This document shows positions 16,102 to 40,085 of a DNA stretch of 64,000 bases, in pieces. This stretch comes from a virus. The first letter of the stretch is position 1. Every line of letters starts with the position of its first letter. The notes beneath the pieces were generated by a model. That model was not told where the DNA came from and made no database searches. It saw only the letters and a list, made by a program, of their open reading frames with translations. The stretch covers positions 1 to 64,000 of IMG/VR virus record IMGVR_UViG_3300049988_000024; one strand, written 5' to 3'. Position numbers and translations under genes: made by a program.

Positions 16102-16104
16102 ACG

Positions 16105-16884: not shown

Positions 16885-16885
16885 A

Positions 16886-17074: not shown

Positions 17075-17085
17075 GGAGAATTAAA

Positions 17086-17980: not shown

Positions 17981-18126
17981 ACACGCGTAACGCGACTGTC
18001 GCGGTCATCCAGCGCGGAAGCCATACGCCAAACCAGCGATCCAATTTGATCCGCTGTGCGCATCGTACTCAGTTGCTAAGGTATCCGGTCAAGGAGAAGA
18101 AGAGTTACGGAGGCAAAGTGGCGTGA
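17977..18126 (+). CDS. possible small basic protein (49 aa)
   Basis: Hand-found gap-filling ORF with ATGA overlap. Weak coding look. Confidence 0.3.
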   Translation: MNTRNATVAVIQRGSHTPNQRSNLIRCAHRTQLLRYPVKEKKSYGGKVA

Positions 18127-18449: not shown

Positions 18450-18627
18450 GATCATGCGTGGTGCTGTCGAGGAATGTTCGCGTGACGGCAACCCGTCGTA
18501 TTATGCGGTTCGGTTGATCGTGGAGAACGCGGCAACGGTGTTTCAACGGGAAGAGCGCTATTGTCTTGACGCCGATGGCGATCCGATGTTTGATCGCGCG
18601 GCGTTTATTCGCGATTGCGGGTTGTGA
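18427..18627 (+). CDS. hypothetical protein
   Basis: ORF track. Confidence 0.55.
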   Translation: MTKDQFAEIMRGAVEECSRDGNPSYYAVRLIVENAATVFQREERYCLDADGDPMFDRAAFIRDCGL

Positions 18628-19010
18628 ACCGCATTGACCGCATCATGCGCGATTTGTGCCTGATGGCTCAAGACACGCCCGCCGTAGGCCAAGCACGGCT
18701 TGCGGCGGCGATCGTGTATCGGCGTCAGGTCGTGGCGTATGGCGTCAATCAGCGCAAGTCCCATCCATTGCAAAAGCGTTTTGGAAAGAACAGCGATTCG
18801 ATTTATCCCCACGCCGAGGTTAACGCCGTTCGCAATAGCGTTAACCGGATGGGTGGGGTTGACTTCTTGCGTGAAAGCGTGTTAATCGTGGCTCGAATGC
18901 GCGTGATCGACGGCAAGTGGCGGCGTGGTCTTGCCAAACCATGTTCGGGATGCGAGCGTTGCATCGAGGCGTTTGGGATTCGTGATGTTGTTTGGACGGA
19001 GGATGAGTAG
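18615..19010 (+). CDS. deoxycytidylate (dCMP) / cytidine deaminase family protein
   Basis: Zinc motifs HAEVNA and PCSGCERC. Start uncertain (TTG 18615, GTG 18624 or ATG 18645). Confidence 0.8.
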   Translation: MRVVNRIDRIMRDLCLMAQDTPAVGQARLAAAIVYRRQVVAYGVNQRKSHPLQKRFGKNSDSIYPHAEVNAVRNSVNRMGGVDFLRESVLIVARMRVIDGKWRRGLAKPCSGCERCIEAFGIRDVVWTEDE

Positions 19011-19373
19011 ATGGCTTATTGCAGATGGAGTTCCGATAACTGGCGATCGGATGTCTACGTTTATGAATCGGATCAAGGGATTGCGATTCATGTGGCGGGG
19101 ATGCGGTACGTAGGCGAAAGGCCGGAAGGGAGTTGGATCAAGGAAAAGGATGGCAAGCTGGTTGTGGACGAAGACTTTGCGCTTCGGTCGCGGCAGTGGC
19201 TAGAAACGGCTGATATGGTTGCGATCGGTGGACCTAGTGACGGCGATACCTACGCGTGCGATCATGCTGAGGCCCTGGAAACGCTTGCGCGTTTGCGCCG
19301 GGAAGGATATCATGTGCCGCAGCATGTGATTGATGAGATTCGGGAAGAGCTAGAGGAGATGAAGGTTGACTGA
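19011..19373 (+). CDS. hypothetical protein
   Basis: ORF track. Confidence 0.65.
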   Translation: MAYCRWSSDNWRSDVYVYESDQGIAIHVAGMRYVGERPEGSWIKEKDGKLVVDEDFALRSRQWLETADMVAIGGPSDGDTYACDHAEALETLARLRREGYHVPQHVIDEIREELEEMKVD

Positions 19374-19623
19374 GAAATATACGCTCGAAAGGGTTTACAA
19401 GGTTTTTGATAATGAAAGCGGGGCGATGATTAAGATCAGTCCCGACGTAGATGGTTTAGGACTTATAGAACTTGATGGCGGCGATGATTATGGACGTTTG
19501 ACACTTCCGCCTGAGTTGGCTGGCATTGTAGGACATGCGATTCTTCATTGTTGCGATGATGTTGAATTCTTTCAAAAGCGCATTGAAGAAAAGCTTACGA
19601 ACAAGGAGAAGACCGATGTCTGA
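19366..19623 (+). CDS. hypothetical protein
   Basis: ORF track; TTG start. Confidence 0.5.
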   Translation: MTEKYTLERVYKVFDNESGAMIKISPDVDGLGLIELDGGDDYGRLTLPPELAGIVGHAILHCCDDVEFFQKRIEEKLTNKEKTDV

Positions 19624-20038
19624 GAAGACGTTTCGCGATGAGTTGGCAATGTTGTTCGATACGGAAGGATATACATTTGAATCTTTGCAGGATTTGTTTC
19701 GCTTTGCAGGACACGAATATTCGCGTGAAGCTGATGCGTTGAAGGCTGCTAGCATGGCGGCGCAAGCCAAGCTCCGATATATGTACGCGGATGCTATGTT
19801 GCGGGCGAGTGGTCGGGTAGAGAAGACGGCTCCGGCGGCTGATGCGGATGGGTGGATCGTACATGACGGCAAGGGTATGCCCTGCGATAAGGAAACCGTT
19901 GTTGATGTGAAGTTCAGAGATGACGATACATCGTATGGTTCGGATGCAATGTTTTGGGACGGACCACTGCCAAAGGATAGTTGGTGGAACCATCAAAACA
20001 GAAGTTGCGACATCATTGCTTGGAGGCACGCACGATGA
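19616..20038 (+). CDS. paralogue 1 with C-terminal DGWI.HDGKGMP domain
   Basis: ORF track 19535..20038. ATG at 19616 after AAGGAGAAG. Confidence 0.65.
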   Translation: MSEKTFRDELAMLFDTEGYTFESLQDLFRFAGHEYSREADALKAASMAAQAKLRYMYADAMLRASGRVEKTAPAADADGWIVHDGKGMPCDKETVVDVKFRDDDTSYGSDAMFWDGPLPKDSWWNHQNRSCDIIAWRHAR

Positions 20039-20469
20039 ACACGTTCAATAACGCAAAGGCCGACACCTTGCGGCGCGAGTTGGGGAAGCTTCAGTGCTGG
20101 TTGACCGGCTATCATGCGGGCGCGGGGCACCGGACAGGAGTGATTGGAGTAGGGATTCCTGGCGAAGATGCTGTGCGTCAGGCGCAATTGTTTTTGGAAG
20201 ACCTGATGCGGGAAGCTGCGGAACGGACACCGGTTACGGAACCGGAAAAGCCGCAGCCCGTGGCTGCTGCGGACGGGTGGATCACACATGACGGGAAGGG
20301 TATGCCAGTTGATGGTCTGACGGAAGTTACGATTAAGTGCCGTGATGGATATGAAGGAGCCGATTGCGACGCAAGTTTTTGGTACGGCGGTGAAGAAGAC
20401 TGGTGGACTTTTGGATCACCTAAAAACACAGGAGATGAAATCATAGCGTACAAGGTTGTAAAGTCATGA
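20035..20469 (+). CDS. paralogue 2 with C-terminal DGWI.HDGKGMP domain
   Basis: ORF track 19981..20469. ATGA overlap at 20035. Confidence 0.65.
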   Translation: MNTFNNAKADTLRRELGKLQCWLTGYHAGAGHRTGVIGVGIPGEDAVRQAQLFLEDLMREAAERTPVTEPEKPQPVAAADGWITHDGKGMPVDGLTEVTIKCRDGYEGADCDASFWYGGEEDWWTFGSPKNTGDEIIAYKVVKS

Positions 20470-24534: not shown

Positions 24535-24563
24535 TTGACTTTTTGCGAGAAATATGTTATTTT
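24535..24563 (+). promoter_or_regulatory. candidate sigma70-type promoter for the HNH gene
   Basis: TTGACT (24535-24540), 17 nt, TATTTT (24558-24563). Confidence 0.45.
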
Positions 24564-24584
24564 CTTTGTTTAACGGAGAATAAC

Positions 24585-25085
24585 ATGAACGATTCGCATG
24601 ATGAGTTTAGACATAAGATCATTGGTCATTGGTGTACTTATTGCGGAGATAACGCCGAAGAGTTTGACCATTTCCCGCCGCGTGCCGTAACCAATTACGG
24701 TCTGCTAGTTCCTTGCTGTAGAGAGTGTAATAGTCACATATCGACTTTGTATGCGTTTTCCTTTAAAGATCGTTCGCTTTTAGCAAAAGATAAGATCAGG
24801 AAAAAATACTCGAAGCTTCTTCGAATACCTGAATGGGATGAAGAAGAGCTAAACGATATGGCTCCTCATATGCGTGATAGCGTTCTAGATGGTCAACGGA
24901 TTCAAGAAATTATAAAGCAACGATTAGCTTGGGACTCGTGGTCTTATCTAAAGGGCATTGACATTAAAAACGATATAGAACGGGTCGTTGTAGAAATAGA
25001 CCTAATTCTTGGAAATATGAAACGCGAATTTGACCGCTCAGAGCGTTTGAACAAGAAAAACGATCAGGACTTGCTCAAACCCTAG
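24585..25085 (+). CDS. HNH-type nuclease (packaging-associated position)
   Basis: CTYCG...EFDHFPP...PCCRECN Cys/His pattern. AT-rich. Lies upstream of the terminase genes. Confidence 0.6.
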   Translation: MNDSHDEFRHKIIGHWCTYCGDNAEEFDHFPPRAVTNYGLLVPCCRECNSHISTLYAFSFKDRSLLAKDKIRKKYSKLLRIPEWDEEELNDMAPHMRDSVLDGQRIQEIIKQRLAWDSWSYLKGIDIKNDIERVVVEIDLILGNMKREFDRSERLNKKNDQDLLKP

Positions 25086-25521: not shown

Positions 25522-25550
25522 TTGACAAACGTAATGAAATAGCTTATAAT
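25522..25550 (+). promoter_or_regulatory. perfect consensus sigma70 promoter with upstream A/T tract
   Basis: TTGACA (25522-25527), 17 nt, TATAAT (25545-25550). TTTTGTAAATTATTTTT at 25501-25517 resembles an UP element. Confidence 0.8.
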
Positions 25551-25556
25551 CATGAG

Positions 25557-26102
25557 CATAACTCGCCAAAGCCTCTCCCAACGCATTGTCGGTTCTACTT
25601 GCATTGCCCTGGTCGAGTCTTAAAGGCCAAAGCGCGAGTCTCCTGCCTCCGCATGAAGCGTATAGAGGCGGGCGCGACTAGACGGGCTGCTTCTCTCCCG
25701 GTTCGTCTAGTCCTCAGTTTGAATTGGGTGCGATGCTGGAAAACGCCTAGCCATTTGGTTTTAGTGAGGTGCTTCGGCTGCTGTTCCCAATAATGCCAAT
25801 CGTGCCAGAACCCCGTGGCAAGGGCACGACAACCGCTTGAGTCTTGCGTAATGCTGACGAGGTTGAAAGGGGTGTTACAACTGGCGAAAGCCATGCGCCG
25901 CGAATGGCGCACTTATTCGATGTCTACAGGGGTCATCGACCCTTAGGCAGAGACGTTCTGAGCGTCTAGCCTTAGCCGCTTTGTGAAGGCGGCTAGAAAT
26001 TGCTTAGTGGCCAATGCTTAGCTTCGGTTGTGGCAGACACTAGGCTTGAGGCGGGATCACATCGGCTGCAAGCTGCGATCTTGACAGGACGCCCGCCTTT
26101 TT
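25557..26102 (+). ncRNA. candidate large structured non-coding RNA (about 550 nt)
   Basis: No credible ORF on either strand. Many hairpins: 25676-25684/25704-25712 (9 bp), 25800-25806/25823-25829, GAAA tetraloop 25882-25893, 25894-25911, 25973-25979/25989-25995. The terminal stem 26050-26055/26092-26097 is followed by TTTTT. Confidence 0.45.
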
Positions 26103-26108
26103 GAATTT

Positions 26109-26184
26109 CTGGGTGTAGCTCAGTTGGTAGAGTCCCGCGTTTGGAGCGCGGTTGTCGTTGGTTCGAGTCCAGCCACCTAGACCA
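26109..26184 (+). tRNA. tRNA-Pro (anticodon TGG) with encoded CCA
   Basis: Hand-folded cloverleaf: acceptor CTGGGTG/CACCTAG, D arm GCTC..GAGT, anticodon arm CCGCG-TTTGGAG-CGCGG, T arm GTTGG-TTCGAGT-CCAGC, then A-CCA. Confidence 0.85.
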
Positions 26185-26290
26185 TTTTGAGTGGGAGTGA
26201 TGAGGAACGCTAACCCAGAAGCGTCTAAGTCTAGGGGTAGAAGCTATGTTTGGGTTGAATAGCACAATGCAACCGCCCCGCTCAATTCAA

Positions 26291-26401
26291 ATCAGGACGT
26301 ACACGGCCCGGTAACGGTGTCCGTCTTCGCGGGAGACTCCGATCAGACCCGCTTGCATATAGAGCCCGCTGACTTTCGGATAGAGCGGGTTCCGTCCTGA
26401 T
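26291..26401 (+). other. structured leader element upstream of terS
   Basis: 9-bp closing helix ATCAGGACG (26291-26299) / CGTCCTGAT (26393-26401). Two alternative left arms (ACCCGCT 26347-26353, GCCCGCT 26364-26370) compete for AGCGGGT (26384-26390). Confidence 0.4.
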
Positions 26402-26472
26402 ATCATCGTTCAACTATAATGAACAATCGAGTTAATTGTCAATTATTTTACGATATAAGCCAAGGAGGCCAA

Positions 26473-26895
26473 ATGTCTGAGGATAACCCGGTTGGGCGTC
26501 CTTCGCTCTTTAGGGAAGAATACGGCGATGTCATTATTGAATGGATGGACAAGGGTTTTAGTCTTACGGCGGCTGCATCACGTCTAGATGTTAGCCGCCA
26601 AACTGTTTACAATTGGGTAGACGAACACCCCGAATTCGCAGCCAAGGTGAAGATAGCTCAATCAAAGCGCCAGTTCTTCCTTGAGAATCGCCTACTGAAG
26701 GCGACTGAAGGCCCGGTCGTCACCTCTTCCATCTTCGCCCTCAAGAACGCCGCCCCCGCCGATTGGCTAGAGAAGACCCATACAGAGGTCACGGGCAAGG
26801 ACGGCGGGCCGATAGAGTCTAAGCAGTCGCTTGACATCACGGGCCTATCCGATGCGGTACTAGAAGAACTGCTTTCGAAGTTGGGGCAAAAGTAA
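26473..26895 (+). CDS. terS: terminase small subunit
   Basis: ORF track 26419..26895. ATG at 26473 after AGGAGG. GRPSLFREEYGDVIIEWMDKGFSLTAAASRLDVSRQTVYNWVDEHPEF is a typical TerS HTH N-terminus. Confidence 0.8.
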   Translation: MSEDNPVGRPSLFREEYGDVIIEWMDKGFSLTAAASRLDVSRQTVYNWVDEHPEFAAKVKIAQSKRQFFLENRLLKATEGPVVTSSIFALKNAAPADWLEKTHTEVTGKDGGPIESKQSLDITGLSDAVLEELLSKLGQK

Positions 26896-26913
26896 AGGGC
26901 CGTAAAGGCCCTT
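26895..26913. terminator. bidirectional hairpin between terS and the antisense cassette
   Basis: AAGGGCC-GTAAA-GGCCCTT. Confidence 0.55.
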
Positions 26914-27115
26914 AATTACTTCCTAGAAGTCTCAAGCTTTCTGGGATTTCAAGATCAAAAACAGGGTCAAGCTCTACCCCTCCTCCCTCAAAAGACCAAG
27001 CGTCCCACCCTCGTGTCTTAATTCCTAGCATAGCTAGTTTCGAAAATTGATAGAAATCTTCTCTTTCGAATGAAGATCGTGGATCAATTAGACATGTTGC
27101 TTTGTAGTATGCCAT
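26912..27115 (-). CDS. hypothetical protein (cassette A, gene A1)
   Basis: ORF track. AT-rich; GGAGAG RBS; own promoter. Confidence 0.6.
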   Translation of the reverse strand: MAYYKATCLIDPRSSFEREDFYQFSKLAMLGIKTRGWDAWSFEGGGVELDPVFDLEIPESLRLLGSN

Positions 27116-27141
27116 CTCATCTCTCCGTTCTCAACACCCAC

Positions 27142-27170
27142 AACATAGCCCGTGGTTTGGGGCTTGTCAA
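27142..27170 (-). promoter_or_regulatory. promoter of A1
   Basis: Minus strand TTGACA (27165-27170), 17 nt, TATGTT (27142-27147). The A2 TGA stop (27167-27169) lies inside the -35. Confidence 0.55.
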
Positions 27171-27370
27171 CTAGAAATATTGTCTTCTTTGGTTGGGCTT
27201 ACAGTTCCAACGATACGTTTCTGTGTATAGTATTCATTTGGAACACAATCGTACTTACCGCGCTTGAATTCAATGATCTTGTAAGGCTCTTTCATTGTAT
27301 CGGCCCAAGCTTGCGCTTTTGCGAATGCCCACGCTTCCGAGCATGGTTTGAGAGAAAGAAAATAGCTCAT
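27167..27370 (-). CDS. hypothetical protein (A2)
   Basis: ORF track. Confidence 0.6.
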   Translation of the reverse strand: MSYFLSLKPCSEAWAFAKAQAWADTMKEPYKIIEFKRGKYDCVPNEYYTQKRIVGTVSPTKEDNISS

Positions 27371-27523
27371 TTAAGCCACCTTCTTAAGAAGAAAAATTTC
27401 AATCGAAGCATCAGCCGTGTAAATTTCGGCAAGCTGCGCAATGATATCCTGACGATCAATTGCGTATGTTTCCATAAACTTGGAAACGCCGTCGATGTAT
27501 GCCATGAAAGCGAACTTGGACAT
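27371..27523 (-). CDS. hypothetical small protein (A3, 50 aa)
   Basis: ORF track 27371..27697. Internal ATG at 27523 after CGGAG (MSKFAFMAYIDG...). Confidence 0.5.
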   Translation of the reverse strand: MSKFAFMAYIDGVSKFMETYAIDRQDIIAQLAEIYTADASIEIFLLKKVA

Positions 27524-27547
27524 CTGCTTGCTCCGTTTCGATGATTG

Positions 27548-27576
27548 ATATTCGCACACGGCCGAAACCCTGTCAA
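27548..27576 (-). promoter_or_regulatory. promoter of A3-A2
   Basis: Minus strand TTGACA (27571-27576), 17 nt, GAATAT (27548-27553). The A4 TGA stop (27573-27575) lies inside the -35. Confidence 0.5.
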
Positions 27577-27842
27577 CAAGAATCCGCAATCTCTCGCGAT
27601 TTAATTTCGGCATATTCTTCAACGGCCAGAACGTACAATCCCCAATCCGTCCGCTTTCGCCCTGGCCAAACCGATGCCTTCTCAAATCCCATACCACGCT
27701 CTAGAGCATATTCCTGAGCCTTCTCGATGAAGGCAAAGAAGTCCCAAGTCGGTGGCAAAGGATCGCCTTCCACCAGCCCTTTTGACCGGAGGAAGGCGCG
27801 ATAAAAATCGGTGTAAACCGAAAGCTCTTCGACTCTCTTCAT
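27573..27842 (-). CDS. hypothetical protein (A4)
   Basis: ORF track 27573..27854. ATGA overlap at 27842. Confidence 0.6.
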   Translation of the reverse strand: MKRVEELSVYTDFYRAFLRSKGLVEGDPLPPTWDFFAFIEKAQEYALERGMGFEKASVWPGRKRTDWGLYVLAVEEYAEIKSREIADSC

Positions 27843-28033
27843 GCAACCATCCACATCGAACCGTTCTTGGTGATCAGGCCCTTCTCAGAAGCCATACGGA
27901 AAGCAGCCGAGTAAGCAGCGCGGGTGTGCGAGACGTTGAAGTAGGAAGCGACGAACCAAGACTGACCGGCGTTGATGGCGTCCACGATCTCGTTAAAGCA
28001 GACTTCGACAGAGGGGTTGAGGTTGCGGGCCAT
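27839..28033 (-). CDS. hypothetical protein (A5)
   Basis: ORF track; AGGAA RBS. Confidence 0.6.
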   Translation of the reverse strand: MARNLNPSVEVCFNEIVDAINAGQSWFVASYFNVSHTRAAYSAAFRMASEKGLITKNGSMWMVA

Positions 28034-28070
28034 TTGCTTCGTTCCTGTGTTTGTCCGTTTCGATGATCAA

Positions 28071-28099
28071 GTTATAGCCCTACCCCAAATCCCTGTCAA
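28071..28099 (-). promoter_or_regulatory. promoter of A5-A4
   Basis: Minus strand TTGACA (28094-28099), 17 nt, TATAAC (28071-28076). Confidence 0.6.
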
Positions 28100-28145
28100 C
28101 CACTTTCTCGCATCCAACGCAAAATAATCAGAAGGACCAGACCCC

Positions 28146-28220
28146 ATGTCCATCGAACGAATCCTAGGCATCTGCATTCTCGTAATCTTGGTCGTATGGC
28201 TGGCGACAAGGGTTCTGTAG
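28146..28220 (+). CDS. possible 24-aa hydrophobic peptide on the opposite strand
   Basis: Hand-found: MSIERILGICILVILVVWLATRVL, between the A5 promoter and the A6 terminator. No clear RBS. Confidence 0.25.
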   Translation: MSIERILGICILVILVVWLATRVL

Positions 28221-28229
28221 GCAAAGGAA

Positions 28230-28248
28230 AAGGGGCTTAGCGCCCCTT
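28230..28248 (-). terminator. rho-independent terminator of the A9-A6 unit
   Basis: Minus strand AAGGGGC-GCTAA-GCCCCTT followed by TTTCCTTTG. Confidence 0.6.
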
Positions 28249-28629
28249 AACCATTTTATACGTAACGCCTTGGCTTTCAAATAGGCGGGTTGCCCAATCG
28301 CCGTCTAGCGGGTTGAAGCCTGTCATCGAGCCTTCTGCGATGAGGCCGCGTACAAGCTTTAGGCCGCTAACAAGGGCGTCCCGCTCAGCGGTCAGGGATT
28401 CGATTTCAAGCGCATCTCGCTCTGAATCAGAACAGAGCTTTTCCCAACCCTGCATGGTCGCATCCATGTTGGCGAACTCTTCGTTAAGCCGACGCTTCAA
28501 CTCGTCGCGTTCAGCCGTCAGGGATTCGATTTCCTCAGCCGCTTCCTTAATGACGCCCCGCAAATTGCCAGGATGAGCGTTTTCGTACAGCGTCCATTCG
28601 CGAAGTTTATCGGCGAAAGTCTTTTCCAT
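28237..28629 (-). CDS. coiled-coil protein with internal EIESLTAERD(E/A)L repeat (A6)
   Basis: ORF track 28237..28668. ATG at 28629 after GGGAGAAAAG. Confidence 0.6.
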   Translation of the reverse strand: MEKTFADKLREWTLYENAHPGNLRGVIKEAAEEIESLTAERDELKRRLNEEFANMDATMQGWEKLCSDSERDALEIESLTAERDALVSGLKLVRGLIAEGSMTGFNPLDGDWATRLFESQGVTYKMVKGR

Positions 28630-28802
28630 CACTTTTCTCCCGTCTTCGGCACCGCCACCATCTCGCAAGCATACACGTTATGCTGACGGGCGCAATCGCG
28701 GAGCTTGCGTTCATACTTGTTAGGTGATCCAAAAATCAAGATCGCAAGCCCAAACCCAATTATCAGGGAGCCGACCCCGACAAGTGCTAGAGACTTCATC
28801 AT
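28629..28802 (-). CDS. small membrane protein (A7, 57 aa)
   Basis: Hand-found. GGAGGAAGGACG then ATGATG at 28802 (MMKSLALVGVGSLIIGFGLAILIFG...). Confidence 0.5.
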   Translation of the reverse strand: MMKSLALVGVGSLIIGFGLAILIFGSPNKYERKLRDCARQHNVYACEMVAVPKTGEK

Positions 28803-28927
28803 CGTCCTTCCTCCACAACATACCCACGCGCCACCAAGAACGCACGGGCTTCGTCTAGCATGTGGGTGGGCAAGCTGTAAACGCCTTGGAACTTGCGGCC
28901 GGGTTGGGTGAAGCGGATGGTGATCAT
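28799..28927 (-). CDS. hypothetical small protein (A8)
   Basis: ORF track 28799..28987. The longer form overlaps A9, so the ATG at 28927 is preferred (MITIRFTQPGRKF...). Start uncertain. Confidence 0.4.
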   Translation of the reverse strand: MITIRFTQPGRKFQGVYSLPTHMLDEARAFLVARGYVVEEGR

Positions 28928-28946
28928 TTGTAAAATACCTTGTTGA

Positions 28947-29156
28947 TTAGATTTCGAGTTCGCGCAGGAAAACGCGATCGTTTGCAATTTTTCGAATTTC
29001 AGCAGCTAGCTCAAAGTCGCGCTCAGCCAACATCTCGGAAACAGTGTTTGCATTATCACCAAAAGGTGCAACATGCTTGGAGTTGGATGCGGTGTTTGCG
29101 CCCTCAATTATAAGAGCGGCACGATTCAAGATTTGGTTCATTTGTAAGCGGTTCAT
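28947..29156 (-). CDS. hypothetical protein (A9)
   Basis: ORF track; AGGAGA RBS. Confidence 0.6.
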   Translation of the reverse strand: MNRLQMNQILNRAALIIEGANTASNSKHVAPFGDNANTVSEMLAERDFELAAEIRKIANDRVFLRELEI

Positions 29157-29182
29157 CGTCTTTCTCCTACGGTTCCCCGTTA

Positions 29183-29211
29183 CGTGTAGCTGAGGATGGG
29201 TTGGGTGTCAA
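29183..29211 (-). promoter_or_regulatory. promoter of A9-A6
   Basis: Minus strand TTGACA (29206-29211), 17 nt, TACACG (29183-29188). The A10 TGA stop (29208-29210) lies inside the -35. Confidence 0.45.
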
Positions 29212-29450
29212 GTACCGTAAAAATCAGAATTTTCGCGAATTGAATATGTTGCTGGATTTCCGTTGCCATCTATAAAAGAAATCTCAATCTTTTCGGATGT
29301 CACGCGCTTGACGGTCAAGTCCTTAATGCGGGTATTGATGCACTTTGAAACAACAAAACCGCTCGCTGTCTCCAGATCATTTGCGGTTATAGCCCAAGCT
29401 GTTGTGAAAGGCAACTTAGATGGCACAGCTTCAATGATAAAGGTCTTCAT
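29208..29450 (-). CDS. hypothetical protein (A10)
   Basis: ORF track 29208..29477. ATG at 29450 after AGGAG. Confidence 0.6.
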   Translation of the reverse strand: MKTFIIEAVPSKLPFTTAWAITANDLETASGFVVSKCINTRIKDLTVKRVTSEKIEISFIDGNGNPATYSIRENSDFYGT

Positions 29451-29476
29451 CTCTCTTCTCCTTTGTCCACAATCCA

Positions 29477-29505
29477 TGTGTAGCGGGTTTGGGGTGGGTG
29501 GTCAA
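29477..29505 (-). promoter_or_regulatory. promoter of A10
   Basis: Minus strand TTGACC (29500-29505), 17 nt, TACACA (29477-29482). The A11 TGA stop (29502-29504) lies inside the -35. Confidence 0.45.
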
Positions 29506-29771
29506 TCGCTTTTCTTCGGCAATCTAGCTTCTGGCCAGCCGAGTTTAGCGCACCAAACGGTTCGCGCTTCTAGATAGCGCCAAGGAAATTCATCACCGCA
29601 ATTTCTAACATAGTCGTCTTCCCAACGCAGCGCAGTTATCTCCCAAGCCTTTGCGCGATATTCTCCTTTGCCTAGCAGCATATCGCAAGCTCTTTCGTGG
29701 GCCTCCGCTCGGAAGCGGAGGAGGGTTTCGTATTTGTGTCGGGCGTAGATTTCATCCATTCCTTCGATCAT
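29502..29771 (-). CDS. hypothetical protein (A11)
   Basis: ORF track. Confidence 0.6.
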   Translation of the reverse strand: MIEGMDEIYARHKYETLLRFRAEAHERACDMLLGKGEYRAKAWEITALRWEDDYVRNCGDEFPWRYLEARTVWCAKLGWPEARLPKKSD

Positions 29772-29914
29772 GCCACGATCTCGCGAGTCTCGATTTCGAT
29801 AAGCTGGCAGGAGTAGAAACCGCCAAATTCGCGCATCCGAAAACCATGAGCGCGGGGAACGATGCGGATTTCAACGGCGCTGTTGTGGTTGTCCTGAGTG
29901 TGCATTTCGATCAT
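29768..29914 (-). CDS. hypothetical small protein (A12, 48 aa)
   Basis: Hand-found. ACGGAGCAAACAA then ATG at 29914. ATGA overlap with A11. Confidence 0.45.
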   Translation of the reverse strand: MIEMHTQDNHNSAVEIRIVPRAHGFRMREFGGFYSCQLIEIETREIVA

Positions 29915-29950
29915 TTGTTTGCTCCGTTGTGTTCGCCTTTTGTGATTACG

Positions 29951-29979
29951 AATATGCCTGACCCGATAACGAGTGTCAA
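29951..29979 (-). promoter_or_regulatory. promoter of A12-A11, back-to-back with the terL start
   Basis: Minus strand TTGACA (29974-29979), 17 nt, CATATT (29951-29956). Confidence 0.5.
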
Positions 29980-29987
29980 CACATAAA

Positions 29988-31457
29988 ATGCCTAAACCCG
30001 CATCTATTCCGCTTAGTCGCCTACCGAGCGTCGATCAGATCGAAACCGAGCTTAGCCGTCGCCATTGTCAGCGCTCGTTCCGCGAGTTCGCTAAGCAGGC
30101 TTGGCATGTCATCGAACCGTCCACCTCGCTCAAATGGAATTGGGCGATGGACGCTATCTGCGATCACCTCCAAGCCGTCCACGAAGGTCACATCAAGCGC
30201 CTCCTGATGAACGTGCCTCCTGGTACGTCTAAATCGACGCTGACGGGCGTTCTCTATCCGGCTTGGGTGTGGACGCAAGACCCTTCGAAACGCTTCCTAG
30301 GGACGGCCCATAAGGCTGAGCTTGCGCACCGAGACAATCTGAAGTGCCGTCGTATCATTCAGTCCGAATGGTATCAGAAGCGTTGGAAGATCGAACTGAC
30401 GGGCGATGCTAACCGCACAACCAAATTCGAGAACACAAAGACCGGCTTTCGCGAATCGATGGCCTTTACTGGCATGACGGGTTCCCGTGGCGACTGCGTG
30501 ATTCTTGACGATCCGATTAGCGCGGGCAATTCAAATAGCGAAGCCGAGCTTTACAAGGCCGAAATCGAGTTCACGGAAACGCTGCCAACGCGCGTCAACA
30601 ATGACGAATCGGCCATTATCGTCGTGATGCAGCGGCTTAACGAACGTGATACGTCTGGTCTCATCCTGAGCCGCGATCTTGGATACGAACACTTGATGTT
30701 GCCTATGCGCTTTGAGCCTGAGCGCAAGTGTTATACTTCGATTGGCTTTGGAGACCCGCGCACCGAAGAAGGCGAATTGCTCTTTCCTGAGCGCTTCCCT
30801 GAATCACAGGTCGCAAGCCTAGAGAAGACGATGGGATCGTTCGGCGCGGCTGGCCAGTTGCAGCAACGGCCTATTCCGCGTGGTGGTGGACTCTTTCAGC
30901 GATCTTGGTTCAATCCGATCCGAGAAGTGCCGCAGGGCACACGCTTCTTCCGAGGATGGGACTTAGCCGCTTCCACTAGTGCTACTTCGGCCTATACCGC
31001 AGGCGTCAAGCTTGGCCTTACGCCAGAAGGCCGGATCGTTATTGCCCATGCTATCCGTGACCGCATGACGGCTGGCAAGGTCATTGCAACTATTCGCGCA
31101 ACGGCTATGGCCGATACTGAGAAAACAAAGCTATCGATCCCGCAAGACCCTGGCCAAGCGGGCAAGGCTCAAAAGGAAGGATTCGCGCAACAGCTTCGTG
31201 AGTTCAATGTGCATTTCTCGCCTGAGTCTGGCGACAAGGTGACGCGCGCCGAACCTTTCGCGGCACAAGCCGAAGCCGGTCTTGTGGATATCGTCGTTGG
31301 CGAGTGGACAGACGCCTATCTAGACGAGATTTCAACGTTCCCGAATGGATCGTATCTCGATCAGGTAGACGCGACTTCGCGCGCCTACCATTTGTTGTTG
31401 CGGGAAACAGCAAAACCAAAAGCGACTATCGGCTGGGGTCCGAAGTTGGTTAGTTAA
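29988..31457 (+). CDS. terL: terminase large subunit
   Basis: ORF track 29973..31457 (ATG at 29988 preferred over GTG at 29973). Walker A-like NVPPGTSKST; VILDDP Walker B; C-terminal nuclease-like half. Length and N-terminus are typical of TerL. Confidence 0.85.
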   Translation: MPKPASIPLSRLPSVDQIETELSRRHCQRSFREFAKQAWHVIEPSTSLKWNWAMDAICDHLQAVHEGHIKRLLMNVPPGTSKSTLTGVLYPAWVWTQDPSKRFLGTAHKAELAHRDNLKCRRIIQSEWYQKRWKIELTGDANRTTKFENTKTGFRESMAFTGMTGSRGDCVILDDPISAGNSNSEAELYKAEIEFTETLPTRVNNDESAIIVVMQRLNERDTSGLILSRDLGYEHLMLPMRFEPERKCYTSIGFGDPRTEEGELLFPERFPESQVASLEKTMGSFGAAGQLQQRPIPRGGGLFQRSWFNPIREVPQGTRFFRGWDLAASTSATSAYTAGVKLGLTPEGRIVIAHAIRDRMTAGKVIATIRATAMADTEKTKLSIPQDPGQAGKAQKEGFAQQLREFNVHFSPESGDKVTRAEPFAAQAEAGLVDIVVGEWTDAYLDEISTFPNGSYLDQVDATSRAYHLLLRETAKPKATIGWGPKLVS

Positions 31458-31648
31458 CGCCCACCCTCCACGGCCTGCCGCGCCTGCTCTTCTAGCATTG
31501 CCGTCTGCCACCCGTCAAGCCACCATCGGCCCTCGTTGGATGGATGCTCGTAAGGACATTCTGTCCAATCCTTGCCATCGCGAAAGGCGTCTTCGCCCGC
31601 GTTCTCTAGGGCAAGGCGGGTAAGGTTTGGTTTAGTGTTCATGATCAA
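31454..31648 (-). CDS. Rmf / CrpP-family small protein (B1)
   Basis: DGKDWTECPYEHPSNEGRWWLDGWQTAM parallels E. coli Rmf ...SKEMCPYQTLNQRSQWLGGWREAM. Confidence 0.6.
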   Translation of the reverse strand: MIMNTKPNLTRLALENAGEDAFRDGKDWTECPYEHPSNEGRWWLDGWQTAMLEEQARQAVEGGR

Positions 31649-31886
31649 TCTCCGGCTGAATCATTCTTGGGTAGGCACTTCGCACGTCACAGTTAGGTCG
31701 CGGAATTACAATCAAAACGTAGTCTGAGCCCCGCGACGAAATCCCCGGCATCGAGCCATTTTCGCGAATGATTTCGTCGCGGTTAATTTCATGCCAACCA
31801 TCATGCGTTGGACGCGGAAACCGGCCTTCGCCTTCGTATTTCCATTTACCACCGGGCTTGAAATAATAGAAATCGCAGTCGTTCAT
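31632..31886 (-). CDS. hypothetical protein (B2)
   Basis: ORF track. Confidence 0.6.
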   Translation of the reverse strand: MNDCDFYYFKPGGKWKYEGEGRFPRPTHDGWHEINRDEIIRENGSMPGISSRGSDYVLIVIPRPNCDVRSAYPRMIQPEIDHEH

Positions 31887-31887
31887 C

Positions 31888-32163
31888 CTATTCTCCTTCC
31901 CCTACCGGCCTCGTATAGCGCTCTAGGCACTTGCGAGCAAGCGGCTGTACATATGGCACACCATTCTCAGCAACAAGATACCCGATACCCCGGCGCGGCC
32001 AAGCGAGCTTCGCGTATCCGACAATCTCGATCTTAGCTCCTTCCGCGAGAATGTCAAGCTGGTTCTTATCGCGGCAAAAGTCTTCGAAGATCGGTATCTC
32101 CACCACAAAACGGTCGCCTCGCTTGAACCGCAGTTCGGCATCGTACTCAGCGTCGGTTTTCAT
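31888..32163 (-). CDS. hypothetical protein (B3)
   Basis: ORF track 31888..32238. ATGA overlap at 32163. Confidence 0.55.
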   Translation of the reverse strand: MKTDAEYDAELRFKRGDRFVVEIPIFEDFCRDKNQLDILAEGAKIEIVGYAKLAWPRRGIGYLVAENGVPYVQPLARKCLERYTRPVGEGE

Positions 32164-32354
32164 CGATCCGTAACCACTTGTTGTAGGTTGCGTCCTGCGG
32201 TCGTGATGTCTTCTAGCGTTGCATCGCGCCACAAACAAATGGCGCGAAAGTTGATATCGTCTCCGATATACTCCTCGACTTGAAGCACGATTGCGGGCGG
32301 CTTATCGGGCTCCAGAACGACATTCCTGAAACGGCTTCGTCCGGTTAGGCTCAT
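32160..32354 (-). CDS. hypothetical protein (B4)
   Basis: ORF track 32160..32450. ATGA overlap at 32354. Confidence 0.55.
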   Translation of the reverse strand: MSLTGRSRFRNVVLEPDKPPAIVLQVEEYIGDDINFRAICLWRDATLEDITTAGRNLQQVVTDR

Positions 32355-32584
32355 AGGTCTTTCGCCTTTTCTATGCTCAGCACGCGCCACGACCACTTGT
32401 TGGGGATCGAACCCGCAGCGTTCATGGCCACTTCTGCGGCATGGTTCCAATCGCGCGCCGATACCAGCAACTCAACGTCGCGCGTTTCATAATCCAGTTC
32501 ATGTGTTCTGAGATACGGATGACGACCGTTCAAGTGAACCTTGACATGGAACGGGAATTCGGGTTTGCGGCAAAAGCAGAACAT
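32351..32584 (-). CDS. hypothetical protein (B5)
   Basis: ORF track 32351..32587. ATG at 32584 after GGAGG. Confidence 0.55.
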   Translation of the reverse strand: MFCFCRKPEFPFHVKVHLNGRHPYLRTHELDYETRDVELLVSARDWNHAAEVAMNAAGSIPNKWSWRVLSIEKAKDL

Positions 32585-32592
32585 CAAACCTC

Positions 32593-32796
32593 CTATGCGA
32601 CGTTATACGCCGCAATGGCGTCCCGAAGATCGTAACCGGAATGCACCTTCTGTCCATCGGCCCACACAACAAAATACATGACCTTTTGCATCATGTCGAT
32701 TTCAGCCGTGATGCACTTATCAGTTGTCGCATCGATATGCCGTGCCACCTGAACGTCAAGTGGTTTGATCATACTAGTGTTAAGAATTGCAGCCAT
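32593..32796 (-). CDS. hypothetical protein (B6)
   Basis: ORF track 32593..32817. ATG at 32796 after AGGAG. Confidence 0.55.
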   Translation of the reverse strand: MAAILNTSMIKPLDVQVARHIDATTDKCITAEIDMMQKVMYFVVWADGQKVHSGYDLRDAIAAYNVA

Positions 32797-32797
32797 T

Positions 32798-33016
32798 TCA
32801 GTTCTCCTTTGTTGCATTAGCGCGCTTTAGAAGCTCAGCCTTCAATTCACGCACCTCTTCCATCTTCCAGCGATGCAAATCCCATTCCTCTTCAGCTAAC
32901 TTGGTTTGCTTCCGCGCTTCGTTTTCGGCATTGCTAGCGCGCGACATGGCGTCCCACGCTTCACGTTCTAGCTCAAGCATTTCGCCATAGATGGCTTCTG
33001 TGGTTTTCCAATCCAT
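32798..33016 (-). CDS. hypothetical coiled-coil protein (B7)
   Basis: ORF track 32798..33052. ATG at 33016 after GGAG. Confidence 0.55.
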   Translation of the reverse strand: MDWKTTEAIYGEMLELEREAWDAMSRASNAENEARKQTKLAEEEWDLHRWKMEEVRELKAELLKRANATKEN

Positions 33017-33017
33017 C

Positions 33018-33245
33018 TTAGTTACTCCTCTGCATCTGAATACCGCGCGCAATCATCTCACGCATCACGACGGTTTGAACCAAAAGCTTTGACACCAAAT
33101 CCTGCTTCATGTCAAGCCGATTCATGAGATCAACGATTGCCGCATCGTCGCCTTCAAAGCGACGCGCCATCGGATTTGCGAGATTATCACAAGCCTTCAC
33201 AACATCGATAAGTTGGTCGTCAGTCATCGCGTAAACGATAAGCAT
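33018..33245 (-). CDS. hypothetical protein (B8)
   Basis: ORF track; GGAG RBS. Confidence 0.6.
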   Translation of the reverse strand: MLIVYAMTDDQLIDVVKACDNLANPMARRFEGDDAAIVDLMNRLDMKQDLVSKLLVQTVVMREMIARGIQMQRSN

Positions 33246-33272
33246 CTCGGTTCTCCGTTAAATCCGATCCAC

Positions 33273-33301
33273 CATCTATCCCATCCCACAACCCCTGTCA
33301 A
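33273..33301 (-). promoter_or_regulatory. candidate promoter of cassette B
   Basis: Minus strand TTGACA (33296-33301), 17 nt, TAGATG (33273-33278). Weak -10. Confidence 0.4.
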
Positions 33302-33330
33302 GCGCGAAATTGCCTAGCAAGAATAAAAGC

Positions 33331-33359
33331 TTGACTTTCGAATAACAATCATGTATAAT
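33331..33359 (+). promoter_or_regulatory. consensus sigma70-type promoter for the portal gene
   Basis: TTGACT (33331-33336), 17 nt, TATAAT (33354-33359). Confidence 0.75.
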
Positions 33360-33384
33360 TCGCGCTTTACCGAGGAAATACGAT

Positions 33385-34728
33385 ATGGCGCTAGGCCCGC
33401 TCAGGAACTTCCTTGGCTTTTCTGGTGCCATTGACAAGAAACCAGTTGCTCCCCTCCGCGAAATGGGCGTTTCCAACGTCCAGGTTTTCGGGGGTTTTCT
33501 TGCGACCGCCGAACGTGCGCGCCAGTTGCAGGGGCAGGAAAAGTTTCGCACCTATAACGACATCGTTTCAAATTGCTCGATTGTTGCAGCATCGATTCGT
33601 TTTTATTCCAACGTCCTGACCAACAGCGAATGGAAGGTCAACGCGCCCGACGATTCGGCGGCAGCGCAGCAATATGCTGACTTCGTTGAAGACGTGATGT
33701 ACGGCATGGAATCCTCGTGGGATCGCATCATCCGACGCGCCGCAGGATTCAAGTTCTCCGGTTGCTCCGTCAACGAATGGACGGCACGCCGTACCGAGAA
33801 CGGCCAGATCGTTTATCGCAATATCGAAGCCCGCGCCCCTGGCACCATCACGCAATGGGACCTGGATGAACAAGGCAATGTGCAAGGCTTCGTTCAGCGC
33901 GATCCTAACACGCAAGAGGAAGTCTACCTTCCTCGCGCCAAGACCATCTATCTTGTTGACGATATGCTGAGCGACCAGCCTGACGGCTTGGGCTTGCTTC
34001 GTCATTGCGCCGAACCAGCGGAACGGCTGAAGGCATATCAAATTCTTGAACAGCGCGGATATGAGCGCGACTTGCGCGGTATCCCAATTGGCCACGCACC
34101 TTATGCTGAACTTGCGGATTGGGCGGGCGACGATCCTGAACGACTGGCAAGAGCGCAACAACACACATCCGCTATTGAAAACTTTGTTTCCATGCAAGTC
34201 AAGGGCGAATCCACGGGTGTCGTTCTGGATTCGCGAACCTACACATCGCAAAGCGATACGGGTAACAGCGTTACCGGCCAGCGTCAATGGGATTTGAGCC
34301 TTCTTCAGGGCGGCGCAAATGGCTTGAGCGATATGGCCGCTGCGGTCACGCGCCTGAATACGGAGATGGCGCGTGTTCTTGGTTGCGAGATGCTTCTTCT
34401 TGGCGAAACCGCGTCGTCACAAGCCTTGTCAAAGGACAAGTCAGGCAACCTTTTTTTGAGCGTCAATTCCACGCTGAAAGACCTTACCTCACAATTCGAC
34501 AAGGACTTCATTGATCCGCTATGGGAAATGAACGGATTTCCCGATGAATACAAGCCTTACTTTTCGACAGAAGACGTTGCGAAGCGTACCGCTGAAGATA
34601 TCGCGGAAACCTTGGCAAATCTTGCGCGTGCTGCGCTTCAGCCTGACGACGAAGCCACGGATTACGTGCGTGGCATGTTGGGCGTTCCGAATCAACCCGA
34701 ATCTACTTTAGCTGTAACCGAAGTCTAA
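33385..34728 (+). CDS. portal protein (Mu gp29 / DUF935-like by general resemblance)
   Basis: 447 aa, first structural gene after terL, with a MuF-like gene downstream. The family call is from memory of similar N-termini and is not verified. Confidence 0.7.
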   Translation: MALGPLRNFLGFSGAIDKKPVAPLREMGVSNVQVFGGFLATAERARQLQGQEKFRTYNDIVSNCSIVAASIRFYSNVLTNSEWKVNAPDDSAAAQQYADFVEDVMYGMESSWDRIIRRAAGFKFSGCSVNEWTARRTENGQIVYRNIEARAPGTITQWDLDEQGNVQGFVQRDPNTQEEVYLPRAKTIYLVDDMLSDQPDGLGLLRHCAEPAERLKAYQILEQRGYERDLRGIPIGHAPYAELADWAGDDPERLARAQQHTSAIENFVSMQVKGESTGVVLDSRTYTSQSDTGNSVTGQRQWDLSLLQGGANGLSDMAAAVTRLNTEMARVLGCEMLLLGETASSQALSKDKSGNLFLSVNSTLKDLTSQFDKDFIDPLWEMNGFPDEYKPYFSTEDVAKRTAEDIAETLANLARAALQPDDEATDYVRGMLGVPNQPESTLAVTEV

Positions 34729-38678: not shown

Positions 38679-39708
38679 GATTCACTTCTCCCTTATCGCA
38701 AAAGCGCGAGAAGATGACATAGCACGAATTCAAGCTTTCGTCAAGAGCGTCGAAAACACCTTTCTGAAAGCCTTCCTTCGCTATCTGACCAATGCCGCTT
38801 CGGATGAAATGGTGGCTGAGGTCGCCAAGCTGATCGAAGCGAATCGTCAAGGCGACATCTCGGTTTACCTAGACCAATTCGCCAAGAGCTTTGAAGGCAC
38901 GATCTTTGACGCGGTAATCGCCGCAGCCCGATTTGAAGACGACATGAGTGGGCCGGAAATCCTGCGCGTTGCGCGTAAGACATTTCCTGATGGCGGGCCA
39001 GTTGTCGGCATCAGCTTCAATCCTGGCAATCCTCGCGCCGCTGAACTTGTGCAACAGCAAGCCGCACGCCTTGTTCGCGAGATCGGCGAATCCACGCGCG
39101 CTGTTGTGACGGATGCCTTGATCGAAGGGCAAAACAACGGATACGGAGCGCGCAAGACCGCGCAAACAATCAAGGACAATATCGGCCTAACCGAGCGCCA
39201 GCTTGCAGCGGTCAAGAATTACCGCAAGCTTCTCGAAGAAGGTTCATCAGAGGCTTTGAATCGCGAGCTACGTGACAAGCGATCCGATCGCACCGTCGCC
39301 AACGCCAAAGACAAGCCGCTTACCTCTGCGCAAATCGATAAGATGGTGGTGCGGTACAAGGAAAAGTATATCCAATACCGCGCTCAGGTGATCGCACGAA
39401 CGGAAGCCGCCGAAGCCGTATCAAATGGCCGCACGGAAGCGCTTCGCCAGCAACTGGAAGCGACAGGACTTGGCGATAATGCAGTTGAGCGCACGTGGGC
39501 CGCAACAAAGGACAAACGCACCCGCACATCGCATAAACACGGCGGGCTAGACGGCCAGAAGGTTCGTGGCGTCGATACGCCTTTTACGTCGCCATTGACG
39601 GGCGCAAAGTTAAAGGCCCCTGGCGATCGTTCGCTAGGAGCCCCCGCTTCGGAAGTTGTTCAATGTCGGTGTACAGTTACGCACCGCATTTTACTTGAAG
39701 ATCAATAA
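38677..39708 (+). CDS. MuF / SPP1 gp7-like minor head (head morphogenesis) protein
   Basis: ORF track 38485..39708. The first 64 codons look like an antisense shadow, so the start is taken at MIHFSL (38677), though uncertain. The C-terminal half (RTEAAEAVSNGR...TRTSHKHGGLDGQ...QCRC) is MuF-like. Confidence 0.65.
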   Translation: MIHFSLIAKAREDDIARIQAFVKSVENTFLKAFLRYLTNAASDEMVAEVAKLIEANRQGDISVYLDQFAKSFEGTIFDAVIAAARFEDDMSGPEILRVARKTFPDGGPVVGISFNPGNPRAAELVQQQAARLVREIGESTRAVVTDALIEGQNNGYGARKTAQTIKDNIGLTERQLAAVKNYRKLLEEGSSEALNRELRDKRSDRTVANAKDKPLTSAQIDKMVVRYKEKYIQYRAQVIARTEAAEAVSNGRTEALRQQLEATGLGDNAVERTWAATKDKRTRTSHKHGGLDGQKVRGVDTPFTSPLTGAKLKAPGDRSLGAPASEVVQCRCTVTHRILLEDQ

Positions 39709-40085
39709 TCTTCTTCATCAAGAGAATCACCAGTTTCGATTCGCAAGATTTTGTTTCCGCCGTCAAGAGAAATAACACCTTCGATGTCTATCGATATGTT
39801 GGGCGGAAATTCAAATTCATGAAGAACAAGACAAAAATCTGGCTCGTCGCCTTCTAAATATTCAACGAAGCCGATAAGGCCACTATCTACGGGATAATTA
39901 TTTCCTTCATTATCTGGATATTCGCCGTCTCCATAAAGAGTAGAAGCCCCGCCAACGTAACGACCATTAAAACTCAACACATTGGGCGGACTGAAATACC
40001 CAGAAGATTCTAGAAGTTTCATCCAGTTATCCCCTTCTTTGAAGGCATGATGATAGCATGGATCGCCAACCAAAAACTTTCGCAT
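39702..40085 (-). CDS. AT-rich antisense gene, DUF4241-like / immunity-protein-like (tentative)
   Basis: ORF track; AGGAGA RBS. STLYGDGEYPDNEGNNYPVDSGLIGF recalls the GDG.YP..VDSG pattern of DUF4241-type proteins (from memory). Confidence 0.6.
   Translation of the reverse strand: MRKFLVGDPCYHHAFKEGDNWMKLLESSGYFSPPNVLSFNGRYVGGASTLYGDGEYPDNEGNNYPVDSGLIGFVEYLEGDEPDFCLVLHEFEFPPNISIDIEGVISLDGGNKILRIETGDSLDEEDY

Follow-up and report, generated by a model that had tools for sequence, protein, structure and literature searches.

Opposite-strand arrays of small orphan genes, punctuated by conserved promoter units, separate terS, terL and portal in a predicted Rhizobiales phage lineage

The stretch of DNA analysed here, hereafter the window (IMG/VR virus record IMGVR_UViG_3300049988_000024, positions 1 to 64,000), comprises 64 of the about 66.5 kb of a phage genome, with ~2.5 kb lying outside it, and its packaging genes terS, terL and portal stand apart from one another, separated by two cassettes of small genes on the opposite strand. 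We consider it probable that these two gaps are hyperplastic accessory-gene arrays, held in fixed slots among the packaging and head genes of a clade of probably virulent, siphovirus-like Rhizobiales phages. Relatives of the phage keep a series of short promoter-containing units in the same order, while the open reading frames (ORFs) between them are replaced, added or lost, which marks the units as exchange breakpoints. The three packaging genes are:

26473-26895, plus strand: terS, 140 amino acids (aa), helix-turn-helix/Sf6_terminase-like (28.4 bits against a Pfam cut-off of 27)
29988-31457, plus strand: terL, Terminase_6C (E 8e-12)
33385-34728, plus strand: portal, Portal_Mu/DUF935 (E 3e-22)

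An earlier reading made without database searches (the sequence-only reading) had described the three genes as standing apart, and its coordinates, gene counts and named promoter all proved correct. The gap between terS and terL (cassette 1) measures 3092 nt and that between terL and portal (cassette 2) 1927 nt, and a gene model combining inspection of starts and ribosome-binding sites (RBS) with a codon-usage score trained on long ORFs reproduced exactly the 12 and 8 small minus-strand genes counted in them. These encode proteins of 42-130 aa (median 68), with a coding fraction of 0.84 in cassette 1 and 0.93 in cassette 2, and the GC skew changes sign to become negative within both. terS has a strong Shine-Dalgarno (SD) sequence (AAGGAGG), the ATG of terL is kept in relatives, and the divergent promoter reported beside terL (A12 in that reading, P1 here) is present as TTGACA(29979-29974)-N17-CATATT, its -35 box ending 8 nt before the terL ATG. 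Adjacency of the three genes had been taken as the usual state, and within the TerL family it is: among ~165 loci fetched by TerL similarity, counting only those with a recognisable terS or portal homologue, the gaps span 5-91 nt between terS and terL (12 loci) and 56-646 nt between terL and portal (7 loci), and the phage with the best deposited TerL match, RHph_X3_2 (55%), has terS, terL and portal contiguous. A crude strand heuristic relying on the longest ORFs at 66 TerL loci was discarded, as it missed the window itself.

Megablast of the region against INPHARED gave no match, i.e., no near-identical deposited phage, and a metagenome scan for a second close relative via TerL gave only a contig already in IMG/VR. 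The close relatives used throughout are all metagenome contigs, with L006, L168 and L174 coming from one JGI sample series (3300017421, 3300017694, 3300017682), and the split layout, with opposite-strand cassettes in the same slots, is present in all of them:

L006: IMG/VR contig of 15.8 kb, TerL 97% identical to that of the window at the aa level
L168: IMG/VR contig of 10.8 kb, found via a junction-sequence search
L173/L174: a 66.2-kb Logan contig and an identical JGI contig, found via a homologue of an 84-aa cassette 2 protein

Rather than forming one unit, cassette 1 contains six predicted promoters (P1-P6) and two intrinsic terminators. It was cut into slots at the promoter units, and the slots were compared between the window, L006 and L168 by blastn and tblastx. 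From terL towards terS, the features and the outcome of this three-way comparison are:

29912-29979, minus strand: unit P1, divergent from terL (-35 box at 29974-29979)
29502-29914, minus strand: slot F (P1 to P2), genes 1-2 of 48 and 89 aa; unrelated in all three (blastn/tblastx coverage 0)
29448-29505, minus strand: unit P2, 57/58 identical to L006, its first 29 nt (-35 to -10 box) exact in L168
29208-29450, minus strand: slot E (P2 to P3), gene 3, an 80-aa orphan; unrelated in all three (coverage 0)
29154-29211, minus strand: unit P3, 54/58 identical to L006
28237-29156, minus strand: slot D (P3 to terminator), genes 4-7 (69-aa orphan, 42-aa, 57-aa membrane and 130-aa coiled-coil proteins), the last three being a partly conserved core
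28230-28248, minus strand: intrinsic terminator closing the P3 operon (fold z = -2.52)
28031-28099, minus strand: unit P4
27573-28033, minus strand: slot C (P4 to P5), genes 8-9, a 64-aa winged-helix-like and an 89-aa protein; window and L168 94% identical, missing from L006
27521-27576, minus strand: unit P5, 54/56 identical to L006
27167-27523, minus strand: slot B (P5 to P6), genes 10-11 of 50 and 67 aa (start/RBS inspection); L006 and L168 81.5% identical, window content unrelated
27113-27170, minus strand: unit P6 (TTGACA, GC-rich spacer, TATGTT, AACGGAG RBS), 58/58 identical to L006 and 61/62 to L173
26912-27115, minus strand: slot A (P6 to terminator), gene 12, a 67-aa orphan (start/RBS inspection); unrelated in all three (coverage 0)
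26895-26913, minus strand: intrinsic terminator closing cassette 1 and abutting the terS stop (fold z = -2.56)

Each unit (56-69 nt) runs from a -35 box through a GC-rich spacer, a weak -10 box and a 5' untranslated region to an AACGGAG-type RBS and the ATG. The consensus across P1-P6 and P7, the promoter of cassette 2, is TTGACA/TTGACC-N17-TAnnnn, sigma-70-like by consensus only, with a spacer of 17 nt and weak -10 boxes (TACACA, TACACG, GAATAT, TATGTT, TATAAC), and promoter-like sites in the region number 19 versus 7.8 +/- 2.4 in shuffled sequences. Within cassette 1, only blocks of ~60 nt match in the alignment of the window with L006, at 93-97%. P2, P3, P5 and P6 taken together are identical at 223 of 230 positions (97.0%), versus 87.3% for terL DNA (Fisher p = 2e-6) and 83.6% for terS DNA (Fisher p = 5e-8), and the 40 nt on each side of a unit show only 25-37% identity, i.e., the random level. 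Spacer and leader positions on which promoters normally place no constraint show 97-100% identity in L006 and L168, more than the essential genes do. The units are position-specific and only loosely alike within the genome: mean pairwise identity among the seven in the window is 0.56 (null 0.50 +/- 0.05), with only three pairs at 0.70-0.73. No stem-loop was found in them, the folds of the seven junction regions scoring z = -0.73 to +1.69 against shuffles and only the two separate terminators being significant. The leader of the L173 cassette 2 promoter equals P1 of the window's cassette 1 in -10 box, leader and RBS, and a unit type can apparently move between arrays. Two further spacer patterns were set aside: a shared operator-like element (CCCCAAACC/GGTTTGGGG) was only weakly enriched (21 versus 12.5 +/- 3.7), and TTGACA-N5-TTTGGGG was not significant; what is left is an observation of GC-rich spacers. 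The junction pattern had no match among 185,579 bacterial and archaeal genomes, and thus gave no prophage or host lead.

The boundaries of replacement coincide exactly with the unit edges in every slot. In L006, a single promoter at the position of slot C consists of the upstream part of P4 and the downstream part of P5, joined at a shared TTGACAGGG, a chimera left behind when 523 bp were gained or lost between two similar units. The groupings of the genomes by slot B and by slot C contradict each other, making the pattern reticulate. More than half of the cassette genes of the window (13/20) lack a homologue in L006, L168 and L173, and the sole cassette gene present in all four is an Rmf/CrpP-like gene, always found in cassette 2 near the terL end. 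The sequence-only reading would have had to yield if relatives carried the same genes as ordinary late structural accessories; instead, they hold different genes in the same slots, and variability this high between close relatives is what accessory or arms-race genes would be expected to show.

We postulate that ORFs in the arrays are replaced by homologous recombination between co-infecting relatives, with the units serving as ~60-nt homology anchors. Transcription of the arrays would run against that of the structural genes and start at host-type sigma-70-like promoters. The orphan genes could be early, dispensable and host-directed (takeover, exclusion or anti-defence), with the host RNA polymerase expressing them either ahead of the late plus-strand program or separately from it, and the terminators may shield terS from antisense read-in. 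Several observations weigh against this proposal. Searches of Pfam, PHROGs, NCBIfam and PADLOC revealed no known domain for host takeover, defence or anti-defence in the cassette proteins, and an early timing of the genes would be read solely from predicted sigma-70-like promoters. Strong promoters of this kind also precede plus-strand structural genes (33331, 37963), so that promoter type alone is no marker of an early gene. Unit conservation is uneven in the more distant L173 (P6 98%, P5 89%, P3 84%, P2 79%), with P2 and P3 about equal to terS, and part of the conservation could be due to ordinary purifying selection acting on regulatory DNA. No dedicated plus-strand sigma-70 promoter was recognised for terL by scanning and four-genome comparison; since both real terminators score on the minus strand only, terL may be transcribed by read-through from the terS promoter across cassette 1. 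Finally, the shared 60-nt units could themselves cause chimeric assemblies, so the linkage of individual slots is possibly unreliable.

The proposal of host-takeover or anti-defence genes, also made in the sequence-only reading, is borne out in part: the small genes are real, mostly orphan, promoter-led and variable, and homologues of an 84-aa one lie in early-type contexts elsewhere (see below). No takeover or anti-defence activity was found, in searches that included no anti-defence library. Its statement that only one of the 20 proteins, the Rmf/CrpP-like one, is recognisable agrees with our searches, in which the other 19 had no annotated family in Pfam, PHROGs or NCBIfam. Below threshold, the 48-aa protein of slot F resembles DUF7170/phrog_4653, and one cassette protein weakly matches phrog_13113 (unknown function, E 7e-4). 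The 89-aa protein of slot F has no homologue among 5.8 billion proteins, and the 91-aa protein of cassette 2 has one real homologue among 1.8 billion representatives. The 64-aa protein encoded by the first gene behind P4 is modelled as a stand-alone winged helix resembling GntR DNA-binding domains (pLDDT 75, TMq 0.73-0.78). None of 21 proteins, i.e., the 20 from the cassettes and a 127-aa protein encoded at 39702-40085, matched a PADLOC defence model.

The strongest competing explanation, which we nevertheless regard as unlikely, is that the cassettes are ordinary morons or late accessory genes inserted at permissive boundaries; the junctions would play no particular part, exchange of the packaging genes would be unconnected, and the units would be conserved by purifying selection. 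P6, the gene at 26912-27115 and the terminator behind it form a complete promoter-gene-terminator unit, in effect a textbook moron, and the P3 operon with its terminator is similarly autonomous. Insertion between genes that are adjacent in relatives and a slightly deviating base composition (GC content of cassette 1 0.491, below the 0.53-0.55 of terS, terL and portal) are likewise shared with the morons of lambdoid phages (HK97/HK022), reportedly described by Juhala et al. and Hendrix et al. in 2000. Several L173 units are conserved no better than terS, as mentioned, and three small genes on the opposite strand also separate terL from portal (16028-20297) in an unrelated phage (L170, an NCBI contig of GCA_036704275.1; Terminase_2, Terminase_3, Phage_portal_3). 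However, this explanation does not anticipate near-identity at spacer and leader positions that are normally free, nor replacement boundaries lying exactly at unit edges in every slot, and the P4/P5 chimera of L006 is a direct footprint of recombination. The window differs from morons in having multi-gene arrays on the opposite strand, an ordered scaffold of conserved junctions and a content that turns over between very close relatives, and it shows no sign of a temperate lifestyle; expression of morons from a prophage seems unlikely, as no integrase or repressor was found in the 64 of ~66.5 kb.

Another explanation, quite improbable in our view, holds that the cassettes are mainly antisense regulatory spacers, crossed by late plus-strand read-through from the terS promoter on its way to terL and portal, in which convergent early and late transcription or double-stranded RNA would act as a temporal switch and the ORFs would be secondary. 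It would accommodate the lack of a convincing plus-strand promoter upstream of terL, the convergent 4-nt overlap of terL with the last gene of cassette 2, and the lack of strong plus-strand terminators in the cassettes, where both real terminators score on the minus strand only. Against such a role, the ORFs have good RBSs, a coding signal and, where homologues exist, conserved families, portal has its own strong conserved promoter, and the array content is freely replaced, unlike what would be expected of sequence-specific antisense functions. That the mosaic is largely an assembly artefact of co-occurring strains sharing 60-nt units, and the split layout itself a mis-join or inversion, is very hard to credit: L006, L168 and L174 do come from one JGI series and short-read assemblers can switch strains at shared repeats, but the independent Logan assembly L173 has the same layout and is 100% identical to L174 over 10.4 kb, at least nine cultured, completely sequenced Rhizobium phage isolates share the layout, the TerL ends common to L168 and the window are 74-80% and not 100% identical at the DNA level, and even a chimeric linkage would require the population to contain alternative ORFs between identical units. 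Owing to the isolate genomes and the agreement of Logan and JGI contigs, both the slot diversity at the population level and the split layout are robust to chimeric assembly.

These isolates belong to the RHph_TM3_3_9/RHEph19 and RHph_Y5A groups (MN988470, MW980069, MN988531; TerL 47% and portal 44% identical to those of the window), in which the order is terS, 5-7 opposite-strand small genes, terL, 4-8 opposite-strand small genes, portal. They share with the window the same three slots (terS|terL, terL|portal, head morphogenesis|protease) and syntenic TerL, portal, Mu-F, protease, capsid and tail-tube genes at 30-50% aa identity, and their cassettes likewise vary between groups. Unlike the close relatives, they have no cassette gene or junction unit in common with the window (no tblastn match of any cassette protein), terS is not recognisably homologous and the replication module is different. 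The slots are thus conserved across the clade, but the cassette genes are not. The split layout is annotated in these deposited Rhizobium phages, and we found no discussion of it in the searchable literature, where no paper names the phages that share it. The third slot holds, in the window, a further opposite-strand island flanked by the Mu-F-like head morphogenesis gene and the protease region, and L006, L173 and TM3_3_9 have unrelated opposite-strand genes at this position:

39702-40085, minus strand: one 127-aa orphan with its own promoter

TM3_3_9 (L002) also shows repeated junctions of ~55-60 nt that are 89-98% identical (1701-1758, 2373-2434, 2862-2907, 3487-3548). Upstream of terS, the TM3_3_9 and Y5A phages have an array of small genes on the same strand, and it is in this array that such repeated junctions lie; junction-bounded gene arrays may be general in the clade containing these phages.

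The closest known parallel is the promoter-early stem-loop (PeSL) cassette of the hyperplastic regions of T4-like phages (Arbiol et al. 2010, PMC2839356; Comeau et al. 2014, PMC4122927). In both, sigma-70-like promoter units (here predicted) ending in an SD and a start codon precede orphan genes, hyperplastic regions lie between conserved core genes, and the units act as breakpoints of insertion, deletion and replacement between close relatives. Unlike PeSLs, the units of the window contain no stem-loop or terminator element, and they are tied to their positions and not near-identical repeats; the host phages of PeSLs are T4-like myoviruses, whereas here head and tail are siphovirus-like, with a Mu-type portal, Mu-F and a PolIII-alpha replication module, and the arrays occupy the opposite strand within the packaging module. 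Since the defining stem-loop is missing and the units are position-specific, we consider that the arrays would work like PeSLs without being members of that family. The layout and the orphan-gene arrays are familiar in principle, and the specific leads are the sharply bounded ultra-conserved units, the independent assortment of packaging genes and a cross-family TerL chimera described below. If correct, our proposal extends promoter-junction gene shuffling, so far seen in T4-like myoviruses, to another lineage and to the most conserved part of the genome, i.e., the packaging module. The arrays, in which the scaffold of expression units stays fixed and the orphan genes differ from relative to relative, also amount to a compact natural library that lends itself to screening for toxicity and defence-system inhibition.

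The packaging genes themselves appear to have been exchanged separately. terS, terL and portal are mutually incongruent in their similarity to those of the relatives, as judged from aa identity to the window: terS is 89% identical in L006 and 88% in L173 (the L168 contig has only the last 26 codons, all identical), terL is 97% identical in L006, 52% in L173 and of a different family in L168, and portal is 63, 71 and 78% identical in L006, L168 and L173, respectively. The L168 TerL (2564-3922, plus strand) is of the Terminase_3/Terminase_3C type, in contrast to the Terminase_6-type TerL of the window, and its residues ~49-437 match Xanthomonas phage PBR31 and Rhizobium phages RHEph04/05. Nevertheless, its N-terminus (first ~37, 37-45, residues; STHKM..TTIPLSALPSVDQIxxELxRR) and its C-terminus (last ~9, 9-15, residues; IG[FW][GA]PKL[LV]S) match the lineage of the window, whose TerL has the lineage-specific peptides ..IPLSxLPSVDQIxxELxRR at the N-terminus and IGWGPKLVS as its tail. 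The IG[FW][GA]PKL[LV]S tail is missing from the C-termini of the other TerL relatives (45 listed, including the window and L006). Because the shared ends are 74-80%, not 100%, identical in DNA, the L168 gene is no assembly join, and its TerL reads as a natural cross-family chimera. The hybrid terminases of phages lambda and 21 are a related known case.

In phage P22, the TerS-binding site of TerL lies within the first 23 residues (PMC9611059). The C-terminal arm of TerL has been implicated in portal binding (PMC5727402). Short peptides at the TerL ends are kept here, even across the body swap of L168, as docking elements for TerS and portal would be expected to be, and we infer that they are such elements, retained through that swap; the docking role is deduced from natural chimeras, the swap being found in L168 and not in the window. 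By providing flanking homology, the arrays would make each packaging gene independently exchangeable. Tentatively, and with less confidence than we place in the arrays themselves, we suggest that they act as recombination landing pads, that terS, terL and portal are separately exchangeable, and that the TerL docking peptides (N-terminal ~35-45 residues for TerS, C-terminal ~10 for portal) make such swaps tolerable, these peptides staying in place while the entire ATPase-nuclease body can be exchanged, even for one of another Pfam family. The discordance and the chimera point to minimal peptides that may couple the motor to TerS and portal. TerL, a frequent choice of phylogenetic marker, would mislead in this clade.

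Cassette 2 is organised as one operon behind P7, with a promoter and no recognised terminator:

33331-33359, plus strand: portal promoter, TTGACT-17-TATAAT with extended TG, a member of the plus-strand GCTTGACTTTCG promoter family
33243-33301, minus strand: P7, the sole cassette 2 promoter, back-to-back with the portal promoter
31888-33245, minus strand: genes 1-6, tightly packed orphans of 75, 72, 67, 77, 64 and 91 aa
31632-31886, minus strand: gene 7, an 84-aa phage family with 38 conserved members
31454-31642, minus strand: gene 8, Rmf/CrpP-family, 62 aa, overlapping the terL stop by 4 nt (convergent)

The Rmf/CrpP-like assignment of the sequence-only reading is upheld by NCBIfam NF041886 (34.3 bits versus a cut-off of 28), with Pfam RMF at 25.5 bits, under its cut-off of 27.9. 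The 84-aa gene and the Rmf/CrpP-like gene overlap by 11 nt. A metagenomic homologue of 137 aa (P0019) fuses the 84-aa family to an Rmf-like domain, a functional link between the two neighbours, which suggests that the two proteins work together. L006 carries two tandem Rmf-like paralogues. The predicted structure of the 84-aa family (pLDDT 92.9) gave no fold match in PDB, and its BFVD matches are uncharacterised phage proteins only. In unrelated phages, its homologues are encoded within early or replication modules, close to Gad2 and RtcB or flanked by AAA_24 and DUF669; the early region of L170 is one in which the Gad2 anti-defence domain lies near such a homologue.

The portal promoter belongs to a second class of promoters on the plus strand (GCTTGACTTTCG...TATAAT with AT-rich spacers), found at 1180, 11992, 33329 and 59688, with similar sites at 24535, 45605 and 52732, and standing before replication and structural genes. 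The cassette promoters differ from this class by a spacer GC of 0.59-0.71 and weak -10 boxes, and the two classes may reflect different regulation.

Within cassette 1, the 130-aa coiled-coil gene (28237-28629, minus strand) contains an internal direct duplication with a 126-nt period (28377-28533) bearing an IESLTAERD motif, which is also present in its L006 and L173 counterparts. Just before the terminator of the P3 operon, a plus-strand micro-ORF lies within the minus-strand genes:

28146-28220, plus strand: micro-ORF encoding a hydrophobic 24-aa peptide (MSIERILGICILVILVVWLATRVL), SD present

It is kept in L006, L168 and L173, its codon differences from L006 being 7 synonymous and 3 non-synonymous, and its product could be a small membrane peptide or a type I-like toxin.

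Upstream of terS, the following promoter probably drives a structured RNA, tRNA-Pro and terS:

25522-25550, plus strand: perfect sigma-70 promoter, TTGACA-17-TATAAT, conserved in L006

The RNA of ~165 nt behind it (25522-25720, plus strand; minimum free energy -60.8 kcal/mol, z = -3.58) lies upstream of the tRNA-Pro, is 80% conserved in L006, has no Rfam family and is a candidate new non-coding RNA or leader. tRNA-Pro(TGG) at 26109-26184 (plus strand), located between it and terS, is also conserved in L006. Minus-strand ORFs at 25595-25912 and 25993-26265 were rejected as genes because they overlap the plus-strand tRNA-Pro and the conserved structured RNA. Compared with L006, the window has an insertion of ~250 bp between the tRNA and terS (26188-26440), which contains a strong promoter on the minus strand (26442-26413, TTGACA-18-TATAGT). 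It also contains a 39-aa ORF (26287-26406) that is possibly leaderless and whose L173 counterpart is 47% identical.

Elsewhere, the genome carries genes for PolIII-alpha, ribonucleotide reductase, ThyX, deaminases, a primase-helicase and HNH endonucleases. The 64 kb examined yielded no integrase, repressor, RNA polymerase or sigma factor, and the phage is probably virulent and dependent on the host RNA polymerase. The nearest phages, together with homologues of the 84-aa protein in Rhizobium jumbo phages, suggest a host among the Rhizobiales. Of three HNH ORFs on the plus strand (5650-6168, 14174-14701, 24543-25085), two are clear HNH endonuclease genes in the replication module, and the third, just upstream of the terS region, has a weak HNH_5 match only; these genes may be homing endonucleases or packaging-associated HNH proteins.

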